From Escherichia coli (GTDB lineage Bacteria; Pseudomonadota; Gammaproteobacteria; Enterobacterales; Enterobacteriaceae), in assembly GCF_003019035.1 (NCBI RefSeq), contig NZ_CP027447.1: DNA of 64,000 bases; one strand, written 5' to 3'. Numbering within the stretch: position 1 is the first letter of the stretch; every line of letters begins with the position of its first letter. Shown here in pieces: positions 5,877 to 62,756 of this stretch. The notes beneath the pieces were generated by a model, which saw only the letters and a program-made list of their open reading frames with translations, did not search any database and was not told where the DNA came from. A program made the position numbers and the translations under genes.

Positions 5877-5977
<101 letters not shown>

Positions 5978-6018
5978 TTTGGCGTTGCCGTCAGTCTCAG
6001 TTAATCAGGTTACGACGA

Positions 6019-42875: not shown

Positions 42876-43511
42876 ATGCGTCTGACAGCAAAACAGGTGA
42901 CATGGCTGAAAGTTTGCCTGCATCTTGCCGGATTGTTGCCGTTTCTCTGGCTGGTCTGGGCGATTAATCACGGTGGACTGGGTGCCGATCCGGTGAAAGA
43001 TATTCAGCATTTTACCGGTCGCACTGCACTGAAATTTTTGCTGGCGACCTTGTTAATCACACCTCTGGCACGCTACGCAAAACAGCCGTTATTGATACGC
43101 ACTCGCCGCCTGTTAGGATTATGGTGCTTTGCCTGGGCGACACTGCATTTAACCAGTTACGCATTGCTGGAGCTGGGCGTGAATAATCTGGCGTTATTAG
43201 GTAAGGAGTTAATTACCCGGCCTTATTTAACGTTAGGTATTATCAGCTGGGTAATTTTGCTTGCGTTAGCGTTCACTTCAACCCAGGCGATGCAGCGAAA
43301 ACTCGGCAAACACTGGCAACAGTTGCATAACTTCGTCTATCTTGTCGCGATCCTGGCCCCAATACATTATCTGTGGTCAGTGAAGATTATTTCACCGCAG
43401 CCACTCATCTACGCTGGGCTGGCTGTACTGCTTTTAGCCTTACGGTATAAGAAGTTGCTTTCCCTTTTCAACCGGTTACGCAAGCAGGTTCACAACAAAT
43501 TATCTCTATAA
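42876..43511 (+). CDS. msrQ: methionine sulfoxide reductase heme-binding membrane subunit
   Basis: 211 aa. Confidence 0.93.
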
Positions 43512-43544
43512 CTTGATATTGCCGACAAAGTACGCGTTATCCCT

Positions 43545-43577
43545 GCCGGATGCGGCGCGAGCGCCTTATCCGGCCCA
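43545..43577. repeat. REP element
   Basis: gccggatgcggcgcgagcgccttatccggcc. Confidence 0.7.
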
Positions 43578-43767: not shown

Positions 43768-44418
43768 TTGGCGATTCGTCTTCATAAACTGGCTGTTGCT
43801 TTAGGTGTCTTTATTGTTAGCGCTCCTGCCTTTTCGCATGGTCATCACTCACACGGCAAACCCTTAACAGAGGTCGAACAAAAAGCTGCTAATGGTGTTT
43901 TTGATGATGCCAATGTACAAAACCGAACACTAAGTGACTGGGATGGAGTCTGGCAATCCGTTTATCCTTTACTGCAAAGTGGCAAACTTGACCCCGTCTT
44001 TCAGAAGAAAGCGGATGCAGATAAAACCAAAACATTTGCTGAAATTAAAGATTATTATCACAAAGGTTATGCGACAGATATCGAGATGATTGGCATTGAG
44101 GACGGCATTGTTGAATTTCATAGAAATAATGAAACAACATCCTGTAAATATGATTACGATGGATACAAAATACTCACCTATAAATCAGGTAAGAAAGGCG
44201 TTCGTTACTTATTCGAATGTAAAGATCCTAAAAGCAAAGCCCCTAAATATATTCAATTTAGCGATCATATAATTGCACCACGAAAATCATCTCATTTTCA
44301 CATTTTTATGGGTAATGATTCACAGCAATCTTTATTAAATGAAATGGAAAACTGGCCAACGTATTATCCCTATCAGTTGAGTAGCGAAGAAGTGGTCGAG
44401 GAAATGATGTCTCATTGA
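43768..44418 (+). CDS. zinT: periplasmic zinc/cadmium-binding protein
   Basis: 216 aa; TTG start with SD ggagga; His-rich N terminus HGHHSHGK. Confidence 0.93.
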
Positions 44419-44506
44419 TTTTTTTGCGCTGACTTCAATTATTTAACAGAACAGTGCCTGGTAGTAACGACAATAATTTACCAAGACAAATAAATAAGAC
44501 AAACTC

Positions 44507-44538
44507 AGACACGCTCATGCTTGAGACGTGTCTTTTTT
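44507..44538 (+). terminator. intrinsic terminator downstream of zinT
   Basis: stem agacacg / cgtgtct followed by a T-run. Confidence 0.6.
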
Positions 44539-45087
44539 ATTATGTCTGTAGAATAAAACTGAGAAAACGGCGAACAATAAATACACAACTCACCAATACA
44601 GACTGGCTGCGCCAATGTCTCCAGGAGCAAGTCATCTGTCATGGTAAAGCTAACCAGAAATATAGGTTAATTTTGGTATTTAAACCTTTTTTACTTGTTA
44701 GTATGATACAAAGGCTTTCAAAAAAGCTGGGAAATTCAACAACTCTTGGAAATTATGGACTTTGTCCCGCGGCTTTAATCTGACGGCCGCGTTCCTTTTT
44801 TTGCTCAATTATTGACCCCTTCTCTACGCAACTTCAGTTCCCACCACCAACTTTGCGGCAGCTTTGTAGGATCAATGTCTAAAAGAATAATGGTGACCGA
44901 TAAGAAAACGACTGAATAATTGCAGATTTTCGCTCGAAACCTTCCTGTCAGATCCATAGCGAATCAAGTGCTGAATGTCACAGTATCGAACAGAAAACAG
45001 TGACGATCTAACCCTTCAAGAATATTCTACGATTGTTCTGTTTAGGAAAAGCAAGGCGGGAAGTCGGGAGATAAGTCATTGATAAAG

Positions 45088-45149
45088 TGGCGGAGAGAGG
45101 GGGATTTGAACCCCCGGTAGAGTTGCCCCTACTCCGGTTTTCGAGACCG
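45088..45149 (-). other. 3-prime 62 nt of tRNA-Ser(CGA) (serU-type): prophage att junction
   Basis: minus strand reads CGGTCTCGAAAACCGGAGTAGGGGCAACTCTACCGGGGGTTCAAATCCCCCTCTCTCCGCCA (anticodon loop to CCA end); tRNA 5-prime half absent, match stops at 45150. Confidence 0.8.
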
Positions 45150-45494
45150 ATGATACAGAGTCGAAAAATCAAAGAGTTAAAAATTTTTCTTGGAATAAAT
45201 GTCTTAAAATCGTACACGAAAAATCAATGAATTACATAAATTAAAGAAGAATATTCCAAGCCTTCTTAAGTCCACCACCTGTTTTCAGGTGTCATTCAGA
45301 CGTGATTTGCCCCATATTGGGAAAGCACGCTTTTTTCTCAGCTTATTCCGTTTTGCCTGTGTGTTGAATAATTCCACTGCAGTTATATAAAATCGGTAAC
45401 GGCTGGAAATCATTCAATACTCGCACTATCGGAAGTTCACCAGCCAACCGCAGCACGTTCTTGCATACGACGTGCTGCGGCATAATCCCAATGA

Positions 45495-46079
45495 TTACTC
45501 CCTGACAGGGTTCGTAGGCCACTCAATATCAGGTGCAGTTGATGTATCAACACGGTTCAGCAACACCCGATACTTCTTCCAGGCTTCCAGCAACGAGTTT
45601 TCTTCCTCCGTTGCAATTTCCAGATCTACAGCATCCTGAAGCGGCGCAATATGCTCACTGGCTACCTGCATCAGGCTTTTTTTTGTTTCTTCCGCCTCCC
45701 GGATCCGGAACAGTTTTTCTGCTTCCGTATCCTTCACCCAGGCTGTGCCGTTCCACTTCTGATATTCCCCTCCCGGCGATAACCAGGTAACATTTTCCGG
45801 TAACGGACCGAGTTCAGAAATAAATAACGCGTCGCCGGAAGCCACGTCATAGACGGTTTTACCCCGATGGTCTTCAACGAGATGCCACGATGCCTCATCA
45901 CTGTTGAAAACAGCCACAAAGCCAGCCGGAATATCTGGCGGTGCAATATCGGTACTGTTTGCAGGCAGACCGGTATGAGGCGGAATGTATGCATCACCTT
46001 CACCAATAAATTCACTGGTTCCGGCCAGCAGATTATAAATTTTTATGGTCCGTGGTTGTTCACTCATTCTGAATGCCAT
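45495..46079 (-). CDS. tfa: tail fiber assembly protein (lambda Tfa-like)
   Basis: 194 aa, matches lambda Tfa as I recall it. Confidence 0.9.
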
Positions 46080-48403
46080 TATGCAAGCCTCACAATATAG
46101 TTAAATGCGATGTTTTTGACGGTGTTTTCCGCGTTACCAGCAGCGTTAACGGTGATGGTGTGTCCGTGTGAACCAATACTGAAAGAATGGGCATGAGCAC
46201 CGATAACAACCGGATGCTGGTGCGCACCAATACCAACTGTATGCGCATGTGCACCGGCACTCACAGCTGTACCGGACAATGAGTGACTGTGGTTGCCCTG
46301 ACTGTCCGTTTTCGATAAATAAGCAATACCCTGTGTGTTGGTTCCTTTAACTGTGGATAAACTTCCTGTAATGGTTGCTGTTCCATACTGACTCCAGCCA
46401 GAACTGTTCATCCTTAAACCACTTGTGTGGGCATGAGCACCCGCGGCCCCTGTTGAACCGCTCAGACTGTGAGCATGAGCCCCCGTGTTATTCGTCGATT
46501 TGGTGCCGTAATCGAAACTGCCTGTTGTTTTCGTCCCGTAATCAAACGACGATGTGGTTTTCGTCCCCAAATCCGTACCGGATGCACTGGCACTGTGGGT
46601 GTGCGACTTAATTCCATCCTGTTCCTGAGACAATACAGCACGACCGCTGGCGGGTTTCCCCTTGATTGTCCAGCCTCGCATATCAGGAAGCACACCCGAT
46701 GGATACGCGACAGCAAGTTTTGGGTAGGCTGATTTGTCAAACGCCTGCCCCTGCATCAGGACGTAGCCAGACGGAACGATATCTGATGGCCACGGGATCG
46801 GCGCACCTGCCGGAAAGGCCGAATTCTCTCCGGCTCCAAGGTATTCAAGAACATCTGCAACAGAATTTTTTGCCAGAATATCCCTGCCAACCTGAGTCAG
46901 TTCAGTCAGGCTGGCGGCATCATTTTCCGCAAAATACGGTAATTTATTTTTCGCCGTGGAAAGCCCTGCCAGCGCCGTCAGTGTCGCATTCTTCGGTTGT
47001 TTACCCGCAAGCGCGTTAGTCATGGTGGTAGCAAAATCTGGATCATTCCCGAGCGCTGCGGCCAGTTCATTCAGCGTATTCAGTGCGTCAGGTGACGCGT
47101 CGATAACATCTGCAATCGCGGCCAGTACAAAAGCGGTGTTCGCAATCTGGGTATTGTTTGTTCCCCTGAGCGCGGTTGGTGCTGTTGGCGTTCCGGTCAG
47201 TGCCGGACTATCCAGTGGGGCTTTTCTGTTCGTTTCATCCATTACCACCTTAACCGCCTTTGGCGTTGCAGCAAGCGTTTCAGACGTGCTGTTGGTTGCA
47301 CTGCTGAGCTGCACTATCCCCTTTCTCGTTGTGTCCGCATCCTCAAGCGCGACAGCTGAAGCTATATCTTCTGCACGTTTTGCCGAGTTTTCTGCACGTA
47401 TTGCCGCCGCTTCTGCCGCACTTTTGCTCTGCGATGCTGATACCGCACTTCCCGCAGCCTCTGTCGCCTTCGTGGATGCCGTTGACGCACTCCCCGCCGC
47501 CGCTGTTTTTGCGTCTGCCGCGGCAGAGGCGCTCCGTTCCGCTGCTGTTTCAGATGACCTGGCATTCGTCTCGGACGTTTTTGCCGCCCTGGCAGAATTT
47601 TCTGCCGCCGTTGCCGAGGAAGCTGCACGACCGGCACTTGATGATGCGTTCGTTTCTGATGATTTTGCTGCCTCTTTTGAGGCCACCGCATCTCGTGCTG
47701 AAGTGGCGGCCTCTGACGCTTTAGTGGTCGCGGTGGAGGCAGACGTGGCGGCTGATTGTTGTGACGCTGCAGCATTCGTTTCTGACGTTTTCGCCGCACC
47801 GGCACTGGTGGCCGCCGCGCTTTTTGAGGACTCTGCAGCGGCAGCACTTTTTTCCGCTTCAGTGGCCTTTGTTGATGCCGTTCCTGCGCTGGAAGACGCT
47901 GACTGAGCCGACGAAGCGGCCTGTCCGGCTGACGTGCTGGCTGCGCGTGCTGAGCCTGCAGCATCAGTCGCATGGGTTGCCGCCTCACGGGCTGATGTGC
48001 TGGCATCGCCGGCTGACTTCTTCGCGGCTGCCGTGTTCTGTGCCACCACGGACGCGTTACGCGCCACCTCTTCCACCATCAGTTCAAAACGGCGCAGTGC
48101 CTCAGGACGGGCATCATCCTCCGTCATGGCACCGAGAAAATCATTCAGCGTACCGGGTCGGGAATCTTCATACACGGTGATGGTCCCGGCATGTGACGGC
48201 GGGAATCCTTCCACCAACAGAATAACGCTGTACTGACCGTACTCAACGTCCATGCTGTAACGCCCGGCTTCATCCGGATTTTCTGAGGCCAGCGTGTTCA
48301 CCACCACCGTGGTACTGTTACGTTTTGCTTTCAGCTGGATTGTGCAGTTCTGTACCGGTTTTCCTGTGCCGTCTTTCAGTACACCTGAAATCTTTACTGC
48401 CAT
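46079..48403 (-). CDS. stf: side tail fiber protein (lambda Stf-like, full length)
   Basis: N terminus [20 protein letters not shown]; Ala/Ser-rich repeats; C-terminal GAHAH repeats; ATG at 48403 (ORF-track start 48409 is GTG). Confidence 0.9.
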
Positions 48404-48414
48404 ATTCACCCCAC

Positions 48415-48440
48415 AAAAAAGCCCGCCTGAACCGGCGGGC
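48415..48440 (-). terminator. intrinsic terminator after lom
   Basis: gcccgcc/ggcgggc hairpin followed by a T-run on the minus strand. Confidence 0.6.
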
Positions 48441-48467
48441 TGTCATAACACTGTGTTACCTGGCTAA

Positions 48468-49067
48468 TCAGAATTTATAACCGACACCCACGATGAAACC
48501 GTCAGTGCGCCAGTCGCCACTGCCGGAACCTTCATAAGCGACATCAACGGCCACGGATTCGGTCGGGTTAAACTGCACGCCAGCCCCCCACGCCAGAGAC
48601 GTGTTGCTGTGGCGACCGTCATCACTTCCGATCAGCACATCGTGCGTTTTCCCCGTATTGTCGGTCACCTGCAGATAATCCCCGGAGAAAGTCGACACAC
48701 GGCTGTAAGCCACACCCGCCATCGCATACGCGCTGAACCATTCATTCACGCGCACAGACGGCCCCGCCATCACGCTGAACCAGCGGTTACGCACGGAATC
48801 TTCATGCCAGCGGGTATCGCTGTAATGCGTTTTTTGCTCATCTTCAGCGTTGGCATAACTGAATGACGTAATCAGCCCCAGCGTGTCCGTAAACTCATAA
48901 CGGTATTTCACGTTAATCCCGTTCAGATTATCGCTGCCGGGAGCGTTCGTACGGGCATGAAGATACCCTGCGCTCAGTGTGGCCTGCTGCTCAGACGCCC
49001 ATGCAGGCGCACCGGATACGGCCAGACAGATGGCTGCGGACAAAATGGCTGCACAAACTTTACGCAT
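48468..49067 (-). CDS. lom: Lom-family outer membrane beta-barrel protein (Ail/OmpX-like)
   Basis: 199 aa with signal peptide and C-terminal GVGYKF. Confidence 0.9.
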
Positions 49068-49134: not shown

Positions 49135-52100
49135 TCAGCTGATACTGATGCCTGCGGTGGCTTTCTTCATCACCACAACCAGCAAATCGCTGATACTTGC
49201 TGTGGGATACCAGTCATTTACCAGCCATGCTGACACCGAAAACTCCAGCGTCATGTGGCCGTGACCAGCTGGCATATCAATAACACCACTGTAAATCAGC
49301 GTATTATCCAGCGCGGTACGGTTATAAATTTCAGCACCATTTTTCTTCACTATCAGGCGGCATGACGAATAAATATCGTTATTCTCCCGCTCATGTTTAG
49401 CGCCGCAGAATGCCACCGCCGGAATAACAATTTGCCTGTCAAAAGGCTGATCGTCATAAATCCTGACGGTAATGGTCCCTGATGGCCACCGCTCCGGTGC
49501 CCGGGAGTCCCGCGGGAAAGCCTTACCCACTGTTTTGACAATATCGCCTTCAATCTGGTTGGCTGACAGTTTCCCTTTAATCTGACAGTTCTCATTTATC
49601 GTAACGTTGTTGAGCGTCCCGGAGTTCGCATTCACACTGCCACTGATATCCGCATTTTTAGCGGTCAGCTTTCCGTCTGATGTCAGGGAAAATACCGGAG
49701 GACTGCCTCCGCTGGTAATGGTGGGTGCCGTCAGGCGTTTCAGGAACACGTCGTTCATGAATATCTGGTTGCCCTGCGCCACAAACATCGGCGTTTCATT
49801 CCCGTTTGCCGGGTCAATAAACGCGATACGGTTAGCGGCAACCAGAAACTGGCTCAGTTTGCCTTCCTCCGTGTCCTCCATGCTGAGGCCAATACCCGCG
49901 ACATAATGTTTGCCGTCTTTGGTCTGCTCAATTTTGACAGCCCACATGGCATTCCACTTATCGTTGGCGTCCTTCCACTCTTTCGAAAACTCCTCCAGTC
50001 TGCTGGCGTTATCCTCCGTCAGCTCGACTTTTTCCAGCAGCTCCTTGCCGAGATGGGATTCGGTTATCTTGCCTTTGAAAAAATCCAGGTAACCTTCCGC
50101 ATCATCGCTCGCCCGACCGACGGCCTCCACGAATGCCGATTTGCCAACGGTGTTCACACTGCGGATATAAAAGTAATAATCATGGCCCGGTTTGATATTG
50201 ATACTGGCGGCTATCCAGTACAGCCCCGTGCCAAGATAGCGGGCTGTGGTTTCAACCTGCCTGATATCAGTAATCCGCGTTTCCGAGAACCAGAACTCAA
50301 ACTGTACCGTCGGATCGTAAACCGCAAGATGCGGCGTGGCGGTTATCTGAAAATAGCCCGGCGTCAGCTCAATCCGCGACGGCGCTGCCGGTGCGGCAAT
50401 CCGGAACGATACCGACGCCGGATCGCCCTGCTGTCCCCACGCATTTACCGCCCGGACTGTCAGCCTGTAGTTCCCTGGCGCCAGTTGCGTGAAGCGGTAT
50501 GTGGTTTCCGTCGTCCGGGCCGTGCTGACCAGCCGCTCACTGCCGTCATCCGCTGCCACGGTCAGGCGAAGCAGGAAGCTCACGCCCTTCACCACTTTCG
50601 GCGTGTCCCAGCGGGCCAGCACCTGATATTCTCCGCTGTCTGCGGTGACTTCGGCAGTCAGGTGCTGCACCGCTGGCGGCGTGACACCATTCACCGTGCC
50701 GCTCTGGTCGCCGTCAAAGTGCGCCCCGTTATCCACGATGGCCTCTTTTTCCGGCACATGCTGCACGGCGGTGATGGCATACGTGCCGTCATCGTTCTCA
50801 CGGATACTCACGCAGCGGAACAGTCGCTGGCGCAGCGTCGGCAGCTTCAGCCCCCATACGCTGTATTCAGCAACACCGTCAGGAACACGGCTCACTTTTA
50901 CCTTCACGCCGTCGGTGACGGACTGAACCTCCACGCTGACCGGATTGCCACTTCCGTCAACCAGGCTTATCAGCGCGGTACCGGAGGATGGCAGCGTGAT
51001 TTCACGGTCGAGCGTCAGCGTCCGGGTCTGGCTGTTCACCGCCAGCACGCGACCACCGGTACTGATACCGGCATAGTCATCATCGCAGACTTCAATGACG
51101 TCACCCGGTACATGGCGAAGCCCTTCTGCACCCACGCTGAAGTCCACCGTCTGCGTCTCCAGCAGTTCCGTTTTAATCAGCCACAGCCCGGCGCGGTGCG
51201 CCTGCCCCCGGCTGGTACAGCCAAAGGCATCCATCTTCGTGACGTTACGACCGTAACGGGCAATAGCCTGCGTATCTTCAACCAGCTCCGTCGCCGTCTC
51301 CCAGCCGTTGTTCGGGTCAATCCAGTTCACCTCAACGGCATTATGGCGGTCCTTCAGGGCGCTGAAGCTGTAGCGGAACGGCGCGCCATCATCCGGCATC
51401 ACCACATTACTGCGGTTATAGGTCCACACCTTATCTGATGGTCGGTCCTGCACGAACGTCAGCGTCTGCCCGTTCCATACCGGCATACAGCGCATCGCCG
51501 AGCAGAAATCACTGAGCACATCCCACGCCTTGCGCTGCGTGGTCAGGTACGCATTACAGGTGATGCGCGGCTCCGTGCCGCCAAAGCCGTCCGGCACTGA
51601 CTGGTCGCAGTACTGGCCGATGACATACAGCGCCCATTTATCCACATCCGCCGCACCAAGACGTTTCCCCATGCCGTAGCGCGGATGGGTCAGCATATCC
51701 CACAGACACCAGGCCATGTTGTTGCTGTATGCCGGTTTAAACGTTCCGTCCCAGATACCGCTGTATTGCCGCGTCTGCGGGTTATAGTTCGACGGCACCT
51801 GCAGAATGCGCCCGCGAAGATGATAATTACGACTCACCTGCTGGCTGCCGAACTGCTCCGAGTCCACCTGTACACCGACCAGTGCCGTGTTCGGGTAGCC
51901 CTGTTTCACATCGATGATTTCGGTGTATGACGACCAGAGCGTTTTGTTCTGCAGCTGGTCTGTAGTGCTGTCCGGCGTCATCCTGCGCATCCGGATACTG
52001 AACGGGCGCGGCGGCAGGTTACCCACCACCACCGAGGCCAGATACTGCGAGGTGGTTTTACCCTTAATGGTGATGTCTTTTTCTGTCACCCAGGCACCGT

Positions 52101-52530
52101 TACGCTGTATCTGAACCAGCAGGCGGACTTCCGACGGATTCCGGTCACCCTTTGAGGTGGTTTCCACCAGAGCCTGCACACCGAAGGTAAAGCGCAGTCG
52201 GTCGATGTTTGCCGACGTGATGGTCCGGGTGATCGGCGTGTCATATTTCACTTCCGTACCCAGCACCGTCTCGGAGCCGGAGGATTCAAACCCCTCCGGC
52301 GGTGTCTGCTCCTGCTCACCTGCCCGGAACACCACCGTGACACCGGAGATGTTGGTATTCCCCTCAGTGTCCAGCACCGGCGTACTGTTCAGCAGCACGC
52401 TTTTTAATCCATCCACCGGACCTTCAATCGGTCCTTCACTGATGGCATCAATCACACTCAGCAACTGCGTGGACTTCAGGTTGTCCTTCGCTTCGCGCGG
52501 GGTATGCCCCTTACTGCTGCCTTTACCCAT
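49135..52530 (-). CDS. J: tail tip / host specificity protein J
   Basis: 1131 aa; N terminus [24 protein letters not shown] matches lambda J; C-terminal ~150 aa diverge. Confidence 0.93.
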
Positions 52531-52590
52531 TCGTCATGCTCCATAAACGACAAAACCGCCCTGAGGCGGTTTCACATAAAACGTTTTTCA

Positions 52591-53238
52591 TCATCGACCA
52601 ATCACCACAACCTGACCACCGTCCCCTTCGTCTGCCGTGCTGATTTCCTGAGAAACCACACGAGACCCCACACGCATTTCACCGTACAGAACAGGCAGAA
52701 CATTGCCCTGGGCAACCATGTTATCCAGTGATGAAAAATAGGTGTTCTGCTTACCGTTATCCGTGCTGGTCGCTGTGGGCGTCCGGGCTTTCGGTGCCAG
52801 CATCTGGGCCACACCACCCAGGATCATACTGGCCCCTGCCGCATACATGCCCGATACAGCCGCGGCACCCAGCCAGCCCACAGGGTTCCACCATGCCACA
52901 GCAATCAGCGCCGCCCCCAGCACCACCTGAAACACACCGCCACTTTTAGCTCCCGCCAGACGCGGCACGATGTGGATCACGGCACCATTTGCCAGCGGCT
53001 CATTAAGACGGGCAGATAATTCGGTTTCACCTGCATCACGCCCGGCAATGCGCACCTGATACCAGCCGTCATTCAGTTTCTGACGAAACGCCGGGAGCTG
53101 TGTGGACAACGCCAGGATGGCTTCAGCCCCCGTTTTTACACGAAGGTCGATGCGGCGGCCAAATCGTTGTAAATCCCCGTAAAGGCAGATGCGTGCCATG
53201 CCCGGTGACGCCAGAGGGAGTGTGTGCGTCGCTGCCAT
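52591..53238 (-). CDS. I: tail assembly protein I
   Basis: 215 aa, lambda I-like. Confidence 0.9.
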   Translation of the reverse strand: MAATHTLPLASPGMARICLYGDLQRFGRRIDLRVKTGAEAILALSTQLPAFRQKLNDGWYQVRIAGRDAGETELSARLNEPLANGAVIHIVPRLAGAKSGGVFQVVLGAALIAVAWWNPVGWLGAAAVSGMYAAGASMILGGVAQMLAPKARTPTATSTDNGKQNTYFSSLDNMVAQGNVLPVLYGEMRVGSRVVSQEISTADEGDGGQVVVIGR

Positions 53239-53879
53239 TTGTCGGTATACCTCTCTCGTTTGCTCAGTTGTTCAGGAATATGGTGCAACAGCTCACCGTC
53301 GCCGCAGTAAATGGCGGCATGATTCGGCACCGATGAACCAAAACAGCACAACAGCACATCGCCCGGTTGTGCTGATGACAACGGCACCTGATACAGCCCC
53401 GTGGCCTCCAGATTATCCAGATAGAGATTCTGACCGTGACGCCACCAGTCATCCCCGCGATGAAAATCCGGCATCTCAATCCCCGCCAGATGATAAGCAT
53501 CCCGGAACAGCGTGTAACAGTCCGTCACCCCGTGATCAAAGCGCCTTCCGGTCAGATGTGGCACGCAGCGGAATTTATGGAGAGCCCCCCGACAGACCAG
53601 CCACCACGGCAAATCACTCTGTACCTGCAGCTGACGGTCGGCTTCACTCAGCCAGGGCAGACCACCGGGATGGCTGTGGACCAGCGCCACCACCTCGCCC
53701 TGTATTTGTGCCCGCAGCCAGTCTTCCGGTACCATCCGGAAACACGCCTCCGGAGTACCGGAGATATTCACGCAGGGAAGATACCTTTCCCCCTCCGGCG
53801 TTCTCACCACGAAGCCGCACGACTCCGCTGGCGCACATCGCCGGGCGTGCGCCAGAATCGCTGATTCAGTCTCTGTCAT
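53136..53879 (-). CDS. K: tail tip assembly protein K (NlpC/P60 + JAB/MPN)
   Basis: ORF trimmed to MTETESAIL; lambda K-like; overlaps start of I. Confidence 0.88.
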   Translation of the reverse strand: MTETESAILAHARRCAPAESCGFVVRTPEGERYLPCVNISGTPEACFRMVPEDWLRAQIQGEVVALVHSHPGGLPWLSEADRQLQVQSDLPWWLVCRGALHKFRCVPHLTGRRFDHGVTDCYTLFRDAYHLAGIEMPDFHRGDDWWRHGQNLYLDNLEATGLYQVPLSSAQPGDVLLCCFGSSVPNHAAIYCGDGELLHHIPEQLSKRERYTDKWQRRTHSLWRHRAWHASAFTGIYNDLAAASTFV

Positions 53880-53883
53880 GGAT

Positions 53884-54582
53884 TTACTGCGAAAGTTTGT
53901 TAATGGAAAGGAAGCCGCCAAAGTTGCCGACGTTATTGCGAAACTTACAGCCACTCAGGCATTTGCTGCATTTATCCTTCGTGATATCGGACGTCGGCTG
54001 GTCATATTCATCCGCGACCGCCGGACCGTTATAACCGCACTCATCGCCTCGATAGGTCCAGGTGCAGGTGTTGGCCAGCATGATACGGCCCGGAAAAACA
54101 GCGCCATCCGTTTCCGTCGGTGTGGACAGTACAAAAGAGGCACTGACCGCACTCAGTTCGCTGCACTGCTCGATGCGCCAGCGGCTGATCACCTCCTGCT
54201 CCGGATCGGCGTCACTGTTTCCGTTGACGAAGTTCACCGCATCCAGAAAACGGGCGTAAACCTTACGCCGGACCACCGTTCCGCCGACCAGACTCTGCAG
54301 ATCTTCCGCCATCCCGGTGACCATGCCGTGCAGATTAGAGACTTTCAGCGTTGGCCTTGCACTGGCTCCTTTGCCGTTCATCTCAAATCCACTTCCCTGA
54401 ATGGGATAGGCCTGATACTGCCGCCCCTGCCAGGTGACTGGTTCACCTTTTTCGTTCTGCTCATTACAGAAGAAATAACGATCTCCGCCGACCTCTGTCA
54501 GATCAATTTCCCAGAGCACGACCAGCGCGGATTGCTCCGCTTTTGTACACTCATTCAGTGTTTCCTGCTGTATATCCTGCAT
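53884..54582 (-). CDS. L: minor tail protein L
   Basis: 232 aa, lambda L-like. Confidence 0.92.
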   Translation of the reverse strand: MQDIQQETLNECTKAEQSALVVLWEIDLTEVGGDRYFFCNEQNEKGEPVTWQGRQYQAYPIQGSGFEMNGKGASARPTLKVSNLHGMVTGMAEDLQSLVGGTVVRRKVYARFLDAVNFVNGNSDADPEQEVISRWRIEQCSELSAVSASFVLSTPTETDGAVFPGRIMLANTCTWTYRGDECGYNGPAVADEYDQPTSDITKDKCSKCLSGCKFRNNVGNFGGFLSINKLSQ

Positions 54583-54881
54583 CAGTGAGTGACCTCTTCA
54601 AAGGTACAGTTAAAATCGGTATACATGGCATTATCCGAAATACTCCACTCCCTGCAGACAACCCGGACGATTCTGTTGTGTTTTGGCGGACGCCACAAAA
54701 AAGCACGTATCCCGGCATGACGGGATAAAAAACTGTCCAGCGCAGCACGGGAATATTCATCTGTGACACGAAACACCGGTTTAAACGTTTTCAGATCCGC
54801 ATTCAGACCACCAGCCCGTCGCTGTTCATATCCGTCACCGAACTTTACCGTAATAACAGATGGCTTTCGTGTCGTCTCCAT
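54582..54881 (-). CDS. M: minor tail protein M
   Basis: lambda M-like motif VKFGDGYEQRRAGGLNADLKTF; start trimmed to ATG 54881, downstream of the H stop. Confidence 0.85.
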   Translation of the reverse strand: METTRKPSVITVKFGDGYEQRRAGGLNADLKTFKPVFRVTDEYSRAALDSFLSRHAGIRAFLWRPPKHNRIVRVVCREWSISDNAMYTDFNCTFEEVTH

Positions 54882-54915
54882 CCCCTCGCGGGGGATCCAG
54901 TTAAAAACTTCAGGC

Positions 54916-57900
54916 TCAGGCACTGTATAATCCTCCGTCCCGACGTGATGACTGCATAATTGACACAACCCTGCTGTCGATCAGATCCACCAGCCCCCTG
55001 GCTGACTGCGTATCTATCTCGCCATTGCTCCCTTTATTCTGAATACTGATGTGATACACGGGAGAATAGACAAATCCGCCGCCACCATTCACATTGCCAA
55101 TGGCTCTGACCCCAAGAGAGCCGTCCGCTGCCCGCGTCAGTGGCATGATAGCTTCAGGCCCGGCCTCGCCCATCAGTCCGGCACCTTTCGCAAAAGCAAA
55201 ATACGTCGGCGTATCCACAATAGTGTTACTGTAAGCACTCAGATTTGCCGATGTGTAAACACCACCTTTTGCGTTTGCTACTGCCCCCGAAATCCATCCG
55301 CCTACCGTACCAAGCCACCCTCCGGCGCCGGAGAGTGATTTCAGTCCGTTAACAATGGCCGCATTCATCAGAATTTTTGAAACTTCCTGGAGAACTGAAC
55401 TCCCCCAGTTCCTCCAGTCAACAACATTCCCGGCCAGTGCATCGGAAATATTTGATACCAGCCCGTCCATGGTGGAAACGACAGCATCTGCCGCCTGCGA
55501 AGCATAATCAGTGGCACTGTCTGCCCAGTTCGTCAGCCCCTCCTGGAGTCCGGCATTCCAGTTACTGCGTAAAGCATCAGCCTTTGCATAATAATCCTGC
55601 TGATCGCTGAGACGCTCTTCCAGATATTTTTTATTCAGTTCTTTCTCCTGTTTCCACAGGGCTTCTTCAATTTCTCCGGCCTGATACTGTCTCAGCAGCT
55701 CGTTATTTTTCTGCTCAAACGTCTGCCGGATACTCCACATTTCCTGGAGTCGTTCACGCATCCGTGAGCCTTCACCATATCCCAGCAACTGCGCGTCGTC
55801 AGATGCCCGGGCACTGGCATTACTGTCCGCCAGACTGCTCTCATACGCAGCAAGCTGCTCACGAATCTTTTTCTGGTCGATGAGTGCTGCATTCTGCAAA
55901 AGCGTTTTTTTCTGCGCTTCTGACAGGGTTGATAATTCGCCCTGACTGACCTGATATTTCATCTTAGCCAGTTCAGTATTCTGCCCTGCCAGTGCTATCT
56001 GCTCTTTCTGCTGTTTAATCAGCCGTTTATAAATATCTTCTGTTTTTTCCGCCTCGGTCTTTTTATGCGCTTTGGGTTTATTTGCCTGATTATTTCGCCA
56101 TGCATCCAGTGAGTTATTTATATAATTCAGTCTTGCTGTCTGATATGCCTCTCCCACAAAGCCGAGATCATCCGCAGCATAACCCAGGCGGGCACGCTCA
56201 CGGGCTTCCCCCTTCAGGCGGGACAGAGCCAGTTCGCGCTCGCTGTTATTCAGTGCGGTCTGCTGTTTATCATCCAGGGTTGCCTGTGGCAGCCGTAACG
56301 GTACATTCACCAGCCCCTGACGCTGCTGAAGTAACTCATTACCAAGCCCGAGAAGGCGATTAAACTCGGTATGCTGCCCATTCATGATCAACAGGGACTG
56401 ATACGCTTTGTTTTGTTCCGCTGCCTGTTGACGGATCAACGCAACCCGCCGCTCCTCCAGCCCGGCAAGCACATCCTGAATGGATTGCGCTTTGCCCTGC
56501 ATTTGTGTGAGGCGAGACTGTTCAACTGCCAGTTGATTTGTTGCTTCGGCAAGCCCTTCTGTGACAGTTTTTACCGACGTCATGTGGTTAATCATAAAAC
56601 CGTTATCGGTTGTCCAGCCCGGGTTTGCCAGCACGTACTGATAGCCAGCAATTTTTTCCTGTAAGGATTTAATCTTACTTTTCTGCTCGTCAATTAACCT
56701 GTTCTGCTCCTTCAGTGCCTGCCGCGTCTTTTCCTCATTATCTGACGCTTCAGGAAGCGACATTGCCGACGTTTTCTGGCGAATTTCGTCGATTGTTGCG
56801 GCATACTGGCGTGCAGATTCTCTGGCCTGCTCCTGATTCTGATACATCGTGTACCAGGCCGCGGCCCCCAGCATGACAAGCCCCGGCACACCCCCAACCA
56901 GTCCCAGTGCTCCACTTAACAGACGACTCCCCGCTGACGTGACAGTATTCAGCGTTGTCTGTGCTGCTGTTCTGGCCGCAATATTACGGGTAAGTGATGC
57001 CTGGGCAGCAGCCAGTTTCGCTTCTGCGGCTGCCTGCCTTTCGGTACCGCGAGCAGCAACAACCGCCTGTTGCGCACGATAAACCGCCGCACGCGCCCTG
57101 GCTGTTGCTATCTGTGTCCCCCGAAGTTGCGCTTCCGCAAGAGCCACTTCGTTTCTGGCTGCAGTAATTAATCCGGCAGTTGCAGATCCAGCAGAAGACG
57201 CCATATTGCCAAAATATCGGGCTACCCCGACGGCAACCAGAGCACCGGCAGCGGTTGCCACAGTGTCAATATTGCCTGCAATACCATTCAGCACACCAGA
57301 GAGCGTCTTTGTCACTCCGCTTGCCTCGTTCGCACCACCAACCCAGGCCATAAAGGCGTTTTCAACTTTGGTTGCAGAGGATGAAACAGTATCAGGCATT
57401 GCTGCATATTCATCACGTAACGCCCCAAGCTGACTAATCAGTGCAGGAACAACCTTATCGGCGGTCAGTTTTCCGTTATCCGCCATGGCCTTCAGATCCT
57501 TACGGGCAACACCCATTCCCGCAGCCAGCGCACGAATAACACGATCGCCGTTCTCATTCACAGAGTTAAATTCTTCACCGCGCAGCACTCCCTGCGCCAG
57601 TGCCTGACTGAACTGCGTGATCACCGAACTGGCTTCTGCTGTACTGGCACCGGATAATTTCAGCCCCGTGGAGATCGCCTCGGTGACTTTCAGTACCTCC
57701 TCAGAACTGTAGCCATACTCCCGCATGGAAGCTGCAGAGCGGGCAAAAAGGCTGGCGTTATCCGAAAACGCCGTCCCCGTTCTCTGGCTGATTGCCATTA
57801 ATTCACGTTGTGATGCCTGAAAATCATCACTGGACTGCGTGGCCTGCTTCAGACGGGCATTGACTGAATTCCACTCATCGGCGAGAGAAATAAGATGACC

Positions 57901-58149
57901 GGTAGCAAAAGCCCCGGCAAATGCCTCCGCCATATTCAGTGCCGAAGACTTAGCTGTATTTATCTGATCCGTCACTTCTACCAGTGCACGCCGCATTTCA
58001 CGGGATGCTGCAGCGGACTGTCGGCCTCCGTTCTGCATGGTGCGGTAGTAATCCTGCCCCATGCGCGAAGCCCGGGCGATCTCTGACTGGAATGACCGGG
58101 AGTTTGCCGAGATTTTAATAATCAGTTCACGTAATGTCGCCACACTCAT
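54916..58149 (-). CDS. H: tail tape measure protein
   Basis: 1077 aa, Ala/Gln-rich coiled-coil, position between GT and M. Confidence 0.92.
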   Translation of the reverse strand: MSVATLRELIIKISANSRSFQSEIARASRMGQDYYRTMQNGGRQSAAASREMRRALVEVTDQINTAKSSALNMAEAFAGAFATGHLISLADEWNSVNARLKQATQSSDDFQASQRELMAISQRTGTAFSDNASLFARSAASMREYGYSSEEVLKVTEAISTGLKLSGASTAEASSVITQFSQALAQGVLRGEEFNSVNENGDRVIRALAAGMGVARKDLKAMADNGKLTADKVVPALISQLGALRDEYAAMPDTVSSSATKVENAFMAWVGGANEASGVTKTLSGVLNGIAGNIDTVATAAGALVAVGVARYFGNMASSAGSATAGLITAARNEVALAEAQLRGTQIATARARAAVYRAQQAVVAARGTERQAAAEAKLAAAQASLTRNIAARTAAQTTLNTVTSAGSRLLSGALGLVGGVPGLVMLGAAAWYTMYQNQEQARESARQYAATIDEIRQKTSAMSLPEASDNEEKTRQALKEQNRLIDEQKSKIKSLQEKIAGYQYVLANPGWTTDNGFMINHMTSVKTVTEGLAEATNQLAVEQSRLTQMQGKAQSIQDVLAGLEERRVALIRQQAAEQNKAYQSLLIMNGQHTEFNRLLGLGNELLQQRQGLVNVPLRLPQATLDDKQQTALNNSERELALSRLKGEARERARLGYAADDLGFVGEAYQTARLNYINNSLDAWRNNQANKPKAHKKTEAEKTEDIYKRLIKQQKEQIALAGQNTELAKMKYQVSQGELSTLSEAQKKTLLQNAALIDQKKIREQLAAYESSLADSNASARASDDAQLLGYGEGSRMRERLQEMWSIRQTFEQKNNELLRQYQAGEIEEALWKQEKELNKKYLEERLSDQQDYYAKADALRSNWNAGLQEGLTNWADSATDYASQAADAVVSTMDGLVSNISDALAGNVVDWRNWGSSVLQEVSKILMNAAIVNGLKSLSGAGGWLGTVGGWISGAVANAKGGVYTSANLSAYSNTIVDTPTYFAFAKGAGLMGEAGPEAIMPLTRAADGSLGVRAIGNVNGGGGFVYSPVYHISIQNKGSNGEIDTQSARGLVDLIDSRVVSIMQSSRRDGGLYSA

Positions 58150-58160
58150 TCTCCGGACGA

Positions 58161-58185
58161 AAAAAAACCGCCGAAGCGGTTTTTG
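58161..58185 (-). terminator. intrinsic terminator closing the moron, immediately upstream of the tape measure start
   Basis: minus strand aaccgc ttcg gcggtt hairpin followed by seven T. Confidence 0.65.
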
Positions 58186-58191
58186 TATTCT

Positions 58192-58344
58192 TTAAAGAAG
58201 TCCGGCCTTACGCCTTGCTTCCTGAAGATATTCATCATCCGTTTTTTGTGAAACGGAACTATCTGCATTGCAAATTAAATCACTACCGCAATGCTTACAT
58301 TTAATCACCTCTTCTTTGTTCGGGTCTGCACAGGGATTCTTCAT
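58192..58344 (-). CDS. hypothetical small Cys-rich protein (50 aa), moron gene
   Basis: MKNPCADPNKEEVIKCKHCGSDLICNADSSVSQKTDDEYLQEARRKAGLL; starts 8 nt after the upstream ORF stop; no clear SD. Confidence 0.4.
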   Translation of the reverse strand: MKNPCADPNKEEVIKCKHCGSDLICNADSSVSQKTDDEYLQEARRKAGLL

Positions 58345-58352
58345 GTCATTGT

Positions 58353-58526
58353 TTACCATTTGTTATTCATATGGCTTCTCATTTCCAGGATTACAAGTGA
58401 ATGGATCAGAGCAACAATAAAGATCATCGAGCCATATATCCACCACCTTAAAAATGAGCAACCTTTGCTTTTCGTGATAATCGCCGGAATCAGCCCTAAA
58501 ATTATTGAAATAAGTACGAATTCCAT
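58353..58526 (-). CDS. hypothetical small membrane protein (57 aa), moron gene; candidate superinfection-exclusion protein
   Basis: SD AAGGAGG 5 nt before ATG; product MEFVLISIILGLIPAIITKSKGCSFLRWWIYGSMIFIVALIHSLVILEMRSHMNNKW with two hydrophobic segments. Confidence 0.55.
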   Translation of the reverse strand: MEFVLISIILGLIPAIITKSKGCSFLRWWIYGSMIFIVALIHSLVILEMRSHMNNKW

Positions 58527-58583
58527 CGATGCCTCCTTACTTACTCAATAAAACGGGAATAATAATTCAGTTATGTGGAAAAT

Positions 58584-58874
58584 TCATCGGGATGCAACAA
58601 ATAACGCCCTCTCAATCTCAGCAAGTGGATCGCCCATATTATTTTCACAGGCGCATTCCCACTGAAGAAGTGCATCATTCAGTGGAACTTTAACCCCCTG
58701 CGCACCGTAAACAGCTGAAACAATCTGGGCAGCACGGATATCAGCCCGTTCGTCCCCCAGCGGGCTGAACCTGTCAAATTCTGCCCACATCATGATTTCT
58801 GATGCGGACATTTCCCGGCGTAATTCTGACAATGTACGCCCCATCCTGAGTGCCAGCATCATCAGAAAACGCAT
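58584..58874 (-). CDS. T: tail assembly chaperone T segment (made as G-T fusion by -1 frameshift)
   Basis: ORF in the -1 frame relative to G, open from the slippery site; lambda G/GT paradigm. Confidence 0.8.
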   Translation of the reverse strand: MRFLMMLALRMGRTLSELRREMSASEIMMWAEFDRFSPLGDERADIRAAQIVSAVYGAQGVKVPLNDALLQWECACENNMGDPLAEIERALFVASR

Positions 58875-58885
58875 CCCCGGAAGCG

Positions 58886-59272
58886 CTACTTTTTTTTAAC
58901 CTCGCCGGCATCACTGATCAGTTCCAGAGACTGCCGAAGAAGCCGCGCATGCACCGGGCCATACACGGCAATCACCTGTTCACGATCATCCTCTGAAAAT
59001 ACAGGTTGCAGTCCGGTATCACACAGAACATCAATGAACAGTTCAACATCTGCCTCCAGATTTCGGCGGGCGCGCTCCGCAACGGATAACGGTGTCTCAT
59101 CATCTTTTGCTTTAACGATCTCCTGCCAGCGCAACCAGGCTTCTGCAGAAGGTTCCCGTAATACAACCGTTGCTCCTTCCCATTCAGGCACATCAACAGT
59201 TTTATGGCGAAACCCCGACATCGTTGCCAGTGCCAGATTACGGATATTTTTAGTCATCACACCCATCCTCAT
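58886..59272 (-). CDS. G: tail assembly chaperone G
   Basis: 128 aa acidic protein between the major tail gene and T. Confidence 0.85.
   Translation of the reverse strand: MRMGVMTKNIRNLALATMSGFRHKTVDVPEWEGATVVLREPSAEAWLRWQEIVKAKDDETPLSVAERARRNLEADVELFIDVLCDTGLQPVFSEDDREQVIAVYGPVHARLLRQSLELISDAGEVKKK
58889..58895 (-). promoter_or_regulatory. programmed -1 ribosomal frameshift slippery heptamer A AAA AAG
   Basis: G frame ends GAG GTT AAA AAA AAG TAG; shifting back one nt reads AAA GTA GCG CTT CCG GGG ATG into the T ORF. Confidence 0.75.
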
Positions 59273-59976
59273 TAACTGACGGTTACAGTGCAGGAAGTGG
59301 AGGTCACTTTGTTAACCGGGCTTGCTGAATCAGAAATCTCGCAGGTATATGCGCCCGCATCACCGGATACTGCCAATGCCTTACTGAACGTTGCCGCCGT
59401 CTGTCCGGAAACAGGAGAACTACCTTTCTTCCAGACATAAGAATAAGGCGGCACACCTCCGGCAGCCTCAACCACCATTTCGAGTTTCGCTCCGGCAGAA
59501 ACCTGCAGCGTGCTGTTTAAATCGACCTTCACTTTCAGCGGCTCTGTCGCCAGCACAGGTTTACCTTTCAGGCGCAGGGAAAACGTTGCAGCCACAACAC
59601 CATTGGTTCCTGCAGACCAGGTATGCTGACGCACCTCTGCCATAAAGGTAAATCCGTTTCCTGACGGAAAAATAACTTTAAAGCCATACGTGGTGTCATT
59701 GTCATAGGCACTGCGCAACGCGTTCTGGGCAGCATTGAGGTAAAAGTTGCCTGACATGGAAATCTCTGACGCGGCACCAAGACCGTTAATATTTTCCTGC
59801 TCAACAGAACACAGCGTGGTGACATCAATATCCTGCTTTTGTCCTGCGGTAAACTGCACCTCTTTGATTGTACAGCTCAGGCCAAGATAGCTGGCAGAAT
59901 CCAGGGTTTCTGCTGTTACCGGTGCAGACGAAATCATAATTTTCGTCAGTTGCGAACGCTCAAAATTAGAGGACAT
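59272..59976 (-). CDS. major tail protein with C-terminal Ig-like domain
   Basis: 234 aa; position upstream of G/GT; Ig-like assignment is by eye. Confidence 0.8.
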   Translation of the reverse strand: MSSNFERSQLTKIMISSAPVTAETLDSASYLGLSCTIKEVQFTAGQKQDIDVTTLCSVEQENINGLGAASEISMSGNFYLNAAQNALRSAYDNDTTYGFKVIFPSGNGFTFMAEVRQHTWSAGTNGVVAATFSLRLKGKPVLATEPLKVKVDLNSTLQVSAGAKLEMVVEAAGGVPPYSYVWKKGSSPVSGQTAATFSKALAVSGDAGAYTCEISDSASPVNKVTSTSCTVTVS

Positions 59977-59993
59977 ACTCGTCTCCTGAAAAT

Positions 59994-60015
59994 AAAAAAA
60001 CCCGCCAGCGGCGGG
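59994..60015 (-). terminator. terminator-like hairpin upstream of the major tail gene
   Basis: cccgcc agcg gcggg hairpin followed by a T-run on the minus strand. Confidence 0.45.
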
Positions 60016-60036
60016 TGGGTAAAATCATTAACGACC

Positions 60037-60381
60037 TCAGGCTATTACCTGAAATTCAAGCGTGGCTCTGCTCAGACGGGAATCAGGATCATAACCCTGA
60101 GTTTTAGAAATAACGGAGGGTACAAGTTGCCTTACCGCATCAAGCGCCTGTTCCCGGATATCATCTGCGTCATCAGGCACCGTTGCCCAGACATCGATCT
60201 GCACGGTAATTCTGGATTCAGCCTGACCATCAAGCACATCAGACGCCGTGTCAGACACCACAGAAAACACCAGCCACGGCGGAGATACCGCAGGCTTTCC
60301 CTCCGTCAGCGGGACCACATAAGGATAAACCTGTCCTCCGGCCAACTGAGACAGCAGGGAATACAGTGTGGCTTCCCTCAT
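60037..60381 (-). CDS. tail terminator / tail completion-like protein
   Basis: 114 aa; call is positional (immediately upstream of major tail gene). Confidence 0.6.
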   Translation of the reverse strand: MREATLYSLLSQLAGGQVYPYVVPLTEGKPAVSPPWLVFSVVSDTASDVLDGQAESRITVQIDVWATVPDDADDIREQALDAVRQLVPSVISKTQGYDPDSRLSRATLEFQVIA

Positions 60382-60827
60382 TTACTTAAGACCTCATCAA
60401 TAGCCTGATTCATTCGCTGTATGGCAACCTGCGCCGCCAGCTCCTCTGTCGTATCGAAAGCCGGGCGAATGAATGGATGCGCGGGCATGTTTATCGTTCC
60501 CAGCTCCACAAAGCGCCAGTAAAACGCATTTCGGGGATCGCTGGCTTTCATGCTGTTATCACTGTTTCCGGTTCGTAGGTTCCGTCCGCGAATGTGGACA
60601 CCCGAGATAATTTCCCCCCGACGCTTTGAACGCTGCGTGAGAACAACCACATTTTTCTTCAGTTTCCCGGTTCGCTCCGGCGCACGTTCAACAACTGCAT
60701 CCCGCATAACTTCAGCACCTGCACGGGTGGCATCGCGCAGAACCTTATTGTTTTCTGCCCTGCTGAGCGTCTCCAGATCCCGTGCAATATCCGCCAGGCC
60801 TGAAAAATCAAGACTGAAATCCATCAC
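60378..60827 (-). CDS. HK97 gp10-like head-tail joining protein
   Basis: 149 aa; position and size in an HK97-type module. Confidence 0.6.
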   Translation of the reverse strand: MMDFSLDFSGLADIARDLETLSRAENNKVLRDATRAGAEVMRDAVVERAPERTGKLKKNVVVLTQRSKRRGEIISGVHIRGRNLRTGNSDNSMKASDPRNAFYWRFVELGTINMPAHPFIRPAFDTTEELAAQVAIQRMNQAIDEVLSK

Positions 60828-61162
60828 ACATTCCCCTTCAGGCTGCAGAGTATTTCAAGCCGGGTGGCGCGTGCATCCGGTATTGGTGGCCCTTCTATAC
60901 CAAGAGTGGCCCCTTTAAATGCACCGGTCAGCACTTTCAGACGTGAAGTCGCTGTCACATCGTGCCGAAATCGCATCCAGACTCTGACCGTAGCCTGAGC
61001 GGTTTCTGCACCTCCTGATATTCTCTCCCTCCCGCTGATACCCTTAACTTCTGCCCATACGGTAGCTCCCTCCGTCACCGTCTCCACCGGATGCCCTGAC
61101 GGAGAGCGGGCGGTGGTGACATTCAGAATAGTTACGCGATCACGTAATCTGCCCGCCTGCAT
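60824..61162 (-). CDS. head-tail adaptor / head closure protein
   Basis: 112 aa; positional call. Confidence 0.6.
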   Translation of the reverse strand: MQAGRLRDRVTILNVTTARSPSGHPVETVTEGATVWAEVKGISGRERISGGAETAQATVRVWMRFRHDVTATSRLKVLTGAFKGATLGIEGPPIPDARATRLEILCSLKGNV

Positions 61163-61170
61163 GGTTCCTC

Positions 61171-61533
61171 CTACAAAGGAATAAAACGATAAGGCTCCAG
61201 CAGAGAAGAAAAACCAAACGGGACTGGTGCCTTGCTGACATCTGAGGAATTTTCCCGGTTTTCGTACCAGTGTCCGACCAGCAACATGAGCGCCAACAAA
61301 ACATCATCAGCTATAAGCACCCCTTCAGGATCACCTTCCGGCACCATCTCCTCATAAAGCTTACGGTTGATAAAATTTTCTGCCTTGCGGCAGGCAGCCC
61401 GGAAATACAGCATCAGTAACTCATCATCAGTTGCATCATCTGTATCAATACGGCACTGCGCCCTGAGTTTTTCCACTATTGCTGCCATCAGAAACTCCTG
61501 CCCGTAACACTGTGCGGGCATAAAAAACTGCAT
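61171..61533 (-). CDS. gp6-like head-tail connector protein
   Basis: 120 aa directly downstream of the capsid gene; start may be an internal Met. Confidence 0.6.
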   Translation of the reverse strand: MQFFMPAQCYGQEFLMAAIVEKLRAQCRIDTDDATDDELLMLYFRAACRKAENFINRKLYEEMVPEGDPEGVLIADDVLLALMLLVGHWYENRENSSDVSKAPVPFGFSSLLEPYRFIPL

Positions 61534-62756
61534 TACGCAGCGGCTTTCTGGCGGGTTGCAGCACCGATCTTCATCAGCTTAATCGCCTGAGAATCCACCA
61601 GCATACCGCCGGTTCGTTTGGTTGTATAAAAGCCCACAAACGGTTTGTTGGTGTAAGGATCGCGCAGGATGCGGGTGCCGATACGATCAACGATGGTATA
61701 GCCGCGTTTGAAGTTACCAAACGCAATAGCTTTTGCATCGGCAGCAATATCCGGCATCTGCTCATTCTCAACGATGCCATACCCCGCCAGTGAAGAAGGC
61801 TGACCCAGCTCAATGCCCGGACGCCACAGATAATTTCCGTCGTTATCCTTCAGCAGGCGAATGGCAAACAGGCTGCTGTTATTCATCATGAACTTCGCGC
61901 CGCTGCGATGCGCCTTGCGCAGGGTGTAAATCAGTTTAATGATCGCATCGGCAGTCGCGCCAGAAGCCACACCGGAAGCGATGTGCTGAAGTTTGCCAAA
62001 CGCACGGGTCTTGTCATCTTCATCGGTGGACTCATAAGCCAGAAAACCTTTTGGTTTTTTGCTGCCGTCGCCACTGGTAAAGGCAATTTCTTCCTGTTCG
62101 GCAAATTCCAGCGCCAGCTCACTGTTGATCCAGTCTTCCACATTGAAGAAAGCGTCATCGAGCATTTTCTGGGTGGCCTGCGGGTTGCCGTAGATTTCCC
62201 CCATAAAGGGTTCAATCAGCCCCAGTTTTGAGGTGGCGGTTTCCGGACGTGCATCCGTTTCCCCCACCCATCCGGACGTTGTGCCGCCCAGATTCACCAG
62301 TTTTTTATAATCCGAGCCCCCGAGGGTGATCACAGTGGCTTCCTGGCGCATCACCACCTCATCTTTCAGTAGCGTCAGAATGGTGCGATCCAGTTCTTCC
62401 GGAATGGCATAACCGCCATCTTCATCATTGCCCACCTGCAGCGCCTTACGCTCCAGCTCACGCAGGCCGTCTTCACGCCCCTTGCGCATAAATCCGATAA
62501 ACGCTTCTTTGTGTTCACTGGCAACTTTATTTTGCGTGCCGCCTGCCGGACGCTTGATGTCTGCCAGCTCTTTTTCCAGGTCGCTTTTCAGGTTCTCCAG
62601 CTCGCTGATTTGCCCGTTCAGGCTTTCCACCTGTTCGGCCAGCTTGCCTTTTTCCTGTTCGATCGCGTCAATGCGCTTGTCGTTTTTTGCCTTAAAATCG
62701 TCAAACTTCTGCTGCAGCTCCTGCGCGACCTGCTCCACATCTTTAATGTCAGCCAT
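61533..62756 (-). CDS. HK97-family major capsid protein
   Basis: 407 aa with N-terminal coiled-coil delta domain then HK97-fold-like body. Confidence 0.88.
   Translation of the reverse strand: MADIKDVEQVAQELQQKFDDFKAKNDKRIDAIEQEKGKLAEQVESLNGQISELENLKSDLEKELADIKRPAGGTQNKVASEHKEAFIGFMRKGREDGLRELERKALQVGNDEDGGYAIPEELDRTILTLLKDEVVMRQEATVITLGGSDYKKLVNLGGTTSGWVGETDARPETATSKLGLIEPFMGEIYGNPQATQKMLDDAFFNVEDWINSELALEFAEQEEIAFTSGDGSKKPKGFLAYESTDEDDKTRAFGKLQHIASGVASGATADAIIKLIYTLRKAHRSGAKFMMNNSSLFAIRLLKDNDGNYLWRPGIELGQPSSLAGYGIVENEQMPDIAADAKAIAFGNFKRGYTIVDRIGTRILRDPYTNKPFVGFYTTKRTGGMLVDSQAIKLMKIGAATRQKAAA

Follow-up and report, generated by a model that had tools for sequence, protein, structure and literature searches.

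A displaced serU fragment marks the right-hand junction of a lambda-like prophage in Escherichia coli

Here we describe a 62-nt piece of a serine tRNA gene, located on the minus strand at positions 45088–45149 of the window (the whole 64-kb stretch of DNA that was analysed). It marks an ordinary attR, where the right-hand end of a lambda-like prophage in serU meets the chromosome. The prophage spans from 45150 to past the end of the window. To the left of the fragment lies native E. coli chromosome, and to the right lie a short arm particular to serU-integrating prophages and a block of phage late genes that begins with the tail fibre assembly gene tfa.

The minus-strand letters of 45088–45149, CGGTCTCGAAAACCGGAGTAGGGGCAACTCTACCGGGGGTTCAAATCCCCCTCTCTCCGCCA, cover positions 29–90 of tRNA-Ser(CGA) and form the B′ side of attR. 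Compared with serU of E. coli K-12 (NC_000913.3), the reverse complement of this segment agrees with bases 29–90 of the gene in 62 of 62 nucleotides. Leftward of 45088 the match runs on, free of mismatches, through at least 137 bases of the K-12 serU downstream flank, and on the 5′ side it stops exactly at 45149/45150, with not one further identical base. Because the 62-nt perfect identity is contiguous with the native flank, a chance match is ruled out. An ARAGORN search of all 64 kb detected no complete tRNA, which identifies 45088–45149 as a tRNA fragment. The program placed the anticodon of K-12 serU at tRNA position 35, and the first base of the fragment is therefore the second of the anticodon stem. 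As is expected of an attR in a tRNA gene, an exact copy of the tRNA 3′ part is joined to native downstream chromosome, and phage DNA lies directly 5′ of it, with tfa at a distance of 345 bp and late genes over 18.9 kb. A preliminary description of this DNA had recognized the last 62 nt of a serU-type tRNA-Ser followed by divergence, and had proposed a prophage/chromosome junction at a displaced serU 3′ piece; the identity, the position of the break, the contiguous K-12 flank and the late genes beyond it bear out both points.

The bacterial flank (43768–45087, plus strand) comprises zinT (43768–44418) and serU-distal intergenic DNA. The chromosomal order on this left side is hprS/R, msrP, msrQ and zinT, at 96–99% identity to many complete genomes. 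A REP-like palindromic element occupies 43510–43575 between msrQ and zinT and gives a weak match to the Rfam family naRNA4, below the family cut-off. The gene yodB is missing: between zinT and the serU flank, a 222-bp segment (44419–44640) stands in place of 995 bp of K-12 sequence. We considered a tie between this loss and the prophage and rejected it, since the same yodB-less allele is present in 2302 of 5426 complete genomes (42%), including CFT073; the absence of yodB is thus a lineage polymorphism and no effect of the prophage.

The open reading frame of tfa ends at 45495, which leaves a gap of 345 bp to the end of the fragment at 45149, in agreement with the earlier estimate of about 345 bp. 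This gap contains no open reading frame longer than 59 amino acids, and genomes with the same junction have no annotated gene within it. Rfam searches of the 345 bp returned just tRNA-like partial matches, no terminator pattern was detected in it and promoter matches there were at chance level. With only short frames and tRNA-like Rfam scraps to consider, we rejected the presence of a credible gene or known RNA in the gap.

The portion of the gap next to the fragment (45150–45383, minus strand) is particular to the serU-integrating lineage. It has no homology to lambda or HK97, and the attR of strain RM8082 is 100% identical to that of the window over 358 nt. This arm holds the only two copies of CTTGGAAT in the 64-kb window, one at 45189–45196 (plus strand) and the other, inverted relative to the first, at 45253–45260 (minus strand), which we regard as candidate arm-type integrase sites. 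Three further copies stand in tandem in the P′ arm of RM8082, between the restored serU and int. The window has five matches to the IHF consensus (WATCAANNNNTTR), where about 2.9 are expected, and three of the five fall within 163 bp of the junction: two on the plus strand at 45167–45179 and 45222–45234, each within one copy of an 18-nt direct repeat, and one at 45072–45084 (minus strand) on the bacterial side, close beyond the 3′ end of the tRNA. Both the arm-type and the IHF sites were assigned from sequence pattern and position alone. In lambda, attP has two arm-type sites on one arm and three on the other, with IHF sites interleaved. The two plus three copies of CTTGGAAT and the IHF matches interleaved with them repeat this layout, and it is by this likeness that 45150–45383 looks like the P arm of attP, with candidate Int and IHF sites.

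The tfa-proximal portion of the gap resembles known lambdoid phages. A conserved 94-nt element lies downstream of tfa (45388–45480, minus strand) and includes an 11-bp perfect hairpin at 45448–45480; it is 97.9% identical to HK97 20946–21039 and 90.9% identical to lambda 24161–24259. Homology to lambda extends 51 bp from tfa into the gap, up to lambda position 22608. The element may be left over from the b region, may mark a boundary between modules or may be terminator sequence. The region after tfa folds better than shuffled sequences (z = −3.2 and −4.1), a signal that shows only the hairpin after tfa. As the annotated sib of HK97 lies just outside the shared 94 nt, we make no claim of a sib-like retroregulator in the gap. 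The lambda b region had been described as absent here, without b-region cargo. The second half of that statement stands, as the gap is without a credible gene and the lambda b-region genes ea47, ea31 and ea59 are absent from the window prophage; the first half goes too far, as about 100 bp of lambda b-region sequence remains at 45384–45481. Missing cargo is not unusual, because the interval between tfa and att in HK97 is likewise compact, at 416 bp. A copy of this junction was also found elsewhere: within the b region of phage Lambda_ev099 (L008, NC_049953.1), positions 5370–5904 match window positions 44810–45343 at 98%. Besides 340 bp of host chromosome, the matching segment includes the 62-nt fragment of serU and the P arm of the serU prophage, and it looks like a fossil attR acquired via aberrant excision or recombination with a prophage.

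Beyond the gap, all genes visible in the 18.9 kb of prophage lie on the minus strand and are intact and collinear, with full-length frames (the portal gene is cut by the window end) and the expected Pfam families. The module nearest the junction is lambda-like. DNA homology to lambda covers 45446–48595 and 49574–54602 at 92–96% identity and ends at 54602. The tail fibre assembly protein Tfa (45495–46079, 194 amino acids, Pfam Caudo_TAP) is 95.9% identical to lambda Tfa. The following gene, stf (46079–48403), encodes a full-length side tail fibre of 774 amino acids with phage_tail_N, Collar and fibre-repeat Pfam matches; its single uninterrupted frame is 93–99% identical to lambda orf-401 and orf-314, the two ORFs into which this gene is divided in the lambda reference record. 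Further along are J (49135–52530), a tail tip and host specificity protein of 1131 amino acids with Pfam J domains, and the tail tip genes I (52591–53238), K (53136–53879) and L (53884–54582), whose products are 78%, 80% and 94% identical to those of lambda and carry the corresponding Pfam families. The first approximately 1000 residues of J are 87–100% identical to lambda J per 100-residue block. An Rfam match to IS009 (RF02111) at 45538–45736 on the minus strand scores 223 bits against a cut-off of 117; it lies wholly within tfa, in the sense direction, and this 'RNA family' may be simply conserved tfa mRNA.

Three parts of this module depart from lambda. The last approximately 130 residues of J, its receptor-binding domain (49135–49573), are only about 41% identical to lambda J. 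The lom gene (48468–49067) encodes an Ail/Lom family outer-membrane protein (Pfam Ail_Lom, E = 4e-125) at 43–45% identity to lambda Lom, and is not the lambda allele. The M-type minor tail protein gene (54582–54923, Pfam Phage_min_tail) forms a mosaic boundary, its product sharing 40% identity with lambda M and 39% with HK97 M. From the divergence of lom and of the J C-terminal end, host receptor use probably differs from that of lambda.

The tail shaft that follows is akin to that of HK97. The tape measure protein (54916–58149, Pfam Phage_HK97_TLTM) matches HK97 gp16 from end to end at 55% identity, and its likeness to lambda H is confined to the C-terminal part, at 26%. The tail shaft and head–tail joining genes, for which Pfam families were found, occupy 58584–61533 and include G and T (64% and 60% amino acid identity to HK97), the major tail protein gene V (59272–59976, 71%), the tail completion or tail terminator gene U (60037–60381, 51%), a gp10-like gene (60378–60827, 80%), the head closure gene Hc1 (60824–61162, 65%) and a connector gene (61171–61533) without an HK97 match. 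V, G/T, H, the tail terminator and gp10 are thus of the HK97 lineage, at 51–80% amino acid identity over full lengths. Between T and the tape measure gene is a moron slot (58150–58583) with a 57-aa hydrophobic ORF at 58353–58526. Related contigs have a 57-aa gene called at this position, and the segment is absent from locus L018, which is otherwise 99.4–99.8% identical. The slot is in the same place as HK97 gp15; the translations, viewed by eye and unaligned, have no evident resemblance.

The head genes belong to the same Pfam families as those of HK97, but by their identities they represent another lineage. The major capsid protein (61533–62756, Phage_capsid) is 26% identical to HK97 gp5, the S78 prohead protease (62771–63421, Peptidase_S78) 35% to gp4, and the portal protein (63399 to 64000, truncated by the window end, Phage_portal) 33% to gp3, which falls short of close kinship. 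The 216-aa form of the protease occurs in 4187 blocks of the genome collection, whereas the 226-aa protease ORF and the tape measure protein had no exact counterpart there. An identical major capsid protein is found only on contigs shorter than 50 kb, which are 99.8–99.9% identical to the window and end in the antiterminator region; relatives followed via a neighbouring DUF5677 protein to the immunity region become increasingly mosaic.

These per-gene identities to lambda and HK97 refine the preliminary description, in which the prophage was a mosaic of a lambda tail and an HK97 head. Mosaic architecture is indeed present, yet that formula is too coarse for the head module, for lom and M and for the end of J. 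Of the genes listed as close to lambda (tfa, stf, lom, J, I, K, L and M), tfa, stf, L, K, I and the first approximately 1000 residues of J deserve the label (78–99% amino acid identity), but lom, M and the receptor-binding end of J do not. Similarly, the HK97-like character assigned to the tape measure, major tail and head genes applies to the first two and fails for portal, protease and capsid. As judged by these comparisons, the tail tip and side fibres of the mosaic are those of lambda, its tail shaft is HK97-like and its head module represents another lineage.

The far end of the prophage is outside the window, and its probable content can be read from relatives. In strains CUVET21-1780, whose flank is the closest to that of the window (99.1% identity), and RM8082, the order is mtfA, intact tRNA-Ser(CGA), integrase, DUF4224, approximately 38–46 kb of prophage, the same fragment and the yodB/zinT-side flank. 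Two 'phage' records, ON470583 and ON470580, are prophage predictions that include host flank; they start at asnT–mtfA–serU, and their integrases are 99% and their structural genes 92–96% identical. Intact serU and integrase are therefore present at the far end of four related prophages, and an intact serU and int likely lie beyond the window for the present one as well. No free-phage attP of the serU-integrase lineage was found, the near-identical database matches being only prophage predictions.

Comparison of the two tRNA halves indicates where strand exchange may occur. The restored serU of CUVET21-1780 and RM8082 carries A48G and T59C, two changes in the variable arm that compensate each other and leave the pairing intact. 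Both substitutions are absent from the window fragment and from K-12, from which it follows that the 3′ half at attL is phage-donated. The window match ends at tRNA position 29 and the first phage-donated substitution in the relatives is at position 48; these bounds would confine the crossover to tRNA positions 29–47, in the anticodon stem-loop (45131–45149, minus strand). The restored serU of RM8082 is also one G short in the T stem, giving a length of 89 nt.

The integrase of the relatives has an uninterrupted frame of approximately 338–339 codons that ends inside the arm sites, and scores above the Pfam cut-offs for Phage_integrase and Phage_int_M. PGAP labels it 'frameshifted' in two unrelated strains, CUVET21-1780 and RM8082 (L029 46755–47805 and L005 10081–11131). 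Given the uninterrupted frame and the Pfam match, this label seems to reflect an error of annotation at the 3′ end.

We consider it highly probable that the site is the attR (P-O-B′) of a lambdoid prophage integrated in serU by a tyrosine integrase, with crossover in the anticodon stem-loop. In this model, the phage attP would bear its own copy of the last approximately 62 nt of the tRNA. On integration, the attP copy would complete serU at the integrase end (attL), and the original 3′ part of the bacterial serU would be displaced by approximately 40 kb to a place beside the tail-fibre end, where it would now be seen as 45088–45149. The 345 bp would consist of a short b-region vestige and then the P arm with two candidate arm-type and two IHF sites, in what may be the same order as in lambda (H2-P2-H1-P1 outward from the core). 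Excision would be expected to require Int, IHF and the small DUF4224 protein that is encoded beside int in relatives.

The main competitor to this model accepts the attR as genuine and takes the prophage behind it for a compound or hybrid array, in which a second phage, a satellite or recombination between prophages separates the tail end from the serU-type integrase. We think this improbable; on that supposition, the unit in the window would not be one element able to excise between serU and the fragment. The supposition draws on strain JNEC-KY180 (NZ_AP045177.1; L004 and L030), the best whole-module match to the late genes of the window (98.4%). It has the same attR, and yet the integrase of its Stx1d prophage is a different one, in an att region that looks intact and holds a fragment of ompW; further upstream a Mu-like prophage sits inside a lambda-like one, and no serU was seen in the approximately 95 kb read upstream of its attR. 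As this compound array shows, an attR of the same type can occur without a simple serU–int partner. In the same direction point the contigs with an identical major capsid protein, in which an integrative element, equipped with an integrase and capsid genes of its own, interrupts the terminase gene, and the reported integration of a prophage into the prophage at serU (PMC8767318). Against it, of five related prophages that were examined, four run as simple units from serU–int to attR, JNEC-KY180 being the exception, and the structural genes in the window are all intact and collinear. Were the compound array real, the attR would pair with a distant or different integrase, and what excises would differ from a simple 40-kb phage.

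The element that splits the terminase large-subunit gene is an observation in its own right. It was seen in loci L020, L021, L023 and L025 (at about 1–7200) and in L032 (15839–20861), carries integrase, AlpA, primase-like, capsid, protease, portal, HNH, TerS and TerL genes, and looks like a capsid-forming satellite.

That the prophage is instead a decayed remnant, its integrase end lost and the fragment a fossil scar of an element unable to excise, is scarcely credible: the PGAP label on the serU-type integrase and the location of the far end beyond the window speak for it, but the late genes in the 18.9 kb have full-length frames matching annotated homologues, the integrase frame is uninterrupted in relatives and matches the catalytic-domain family of Pfam, and the P-arm motifs are intact.

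With the preferred reading of a single lambdoid prophage in serU, the element can be placed among known phages. The serU prophages of RM8082 and CUVET21-1780 share its att site, tRNA fragment, P arm (100% in RM8082) and tail-tip and tail-fibre genes, and CUVET21-1780, ON470583 and ON470580 also share its HK97-like shaft and head module. RM8082 differs in having a fully lambda-type head and in carrying stx1d, neither of which is found in the visible part of the window prophage. Lambda itself has the same gene order L-K-I-J-lom-stf-tfa-att and, as far as the motifs suggest, a similar att arm with two arm-type sites interleaved with IHF sites, whereas its att is the gal–bio attB rather than serU, its lom allele and J receptor-binding end differ and its head and tail shaft are unrelated. 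HK97 is similar in its tail shaft and head–tail joining genes (51–80%), in the moron slot between T and H and in the compact stretch after tfa with the 94-nt element, but it has the lambda att site and integrase, and its tail tip genes are only 33–39% identical, in addition to the divergent portal, protease and capsid. Integrases 55–61% identical to the serU-type integrase over nearly the full length are encoded by Salmonella phage ST64B, whose att site we take to be serU, and by Klebsiella and Citrobacter phages.

Among 5426 complete E. coli genomes, the attL module (serU and integrase) is present in 1093, and an attR of the window type in 602, counted where 80% or more of the 358 nt of arm and fragment was present. 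The attR of serU prophages is thus already known and, because the same insertion site is used in hundreds of sequenced strains, the junction is real but not new. In Shiga-toxin-producing E. coli (STEC) O121:H19 and O145:H28, serU is reported as a prophage integration site, and comparisons of STEC strains describe frequent replacements there (PMC8767318, PMC7067040). The STEC serU prophages described in one of these studies (PMC7067040) carry type III secretion effector genes, none of which is found in the visible part of the window prophage.

Together, these results leave current understanding unchallenged. The serU gene is a documented prophage hot spot whose occupants include carriers of Shiga toxin and effectors, and the prophage part within the window has no such cargo downstream of tfa. 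The value of the finding is chiefly for annotation: the prophage boundary is fixed to the base, at 45149/45150, the module assignments are corrected, and the tRNA-like piece beside the boundary is a scar, not a gene.
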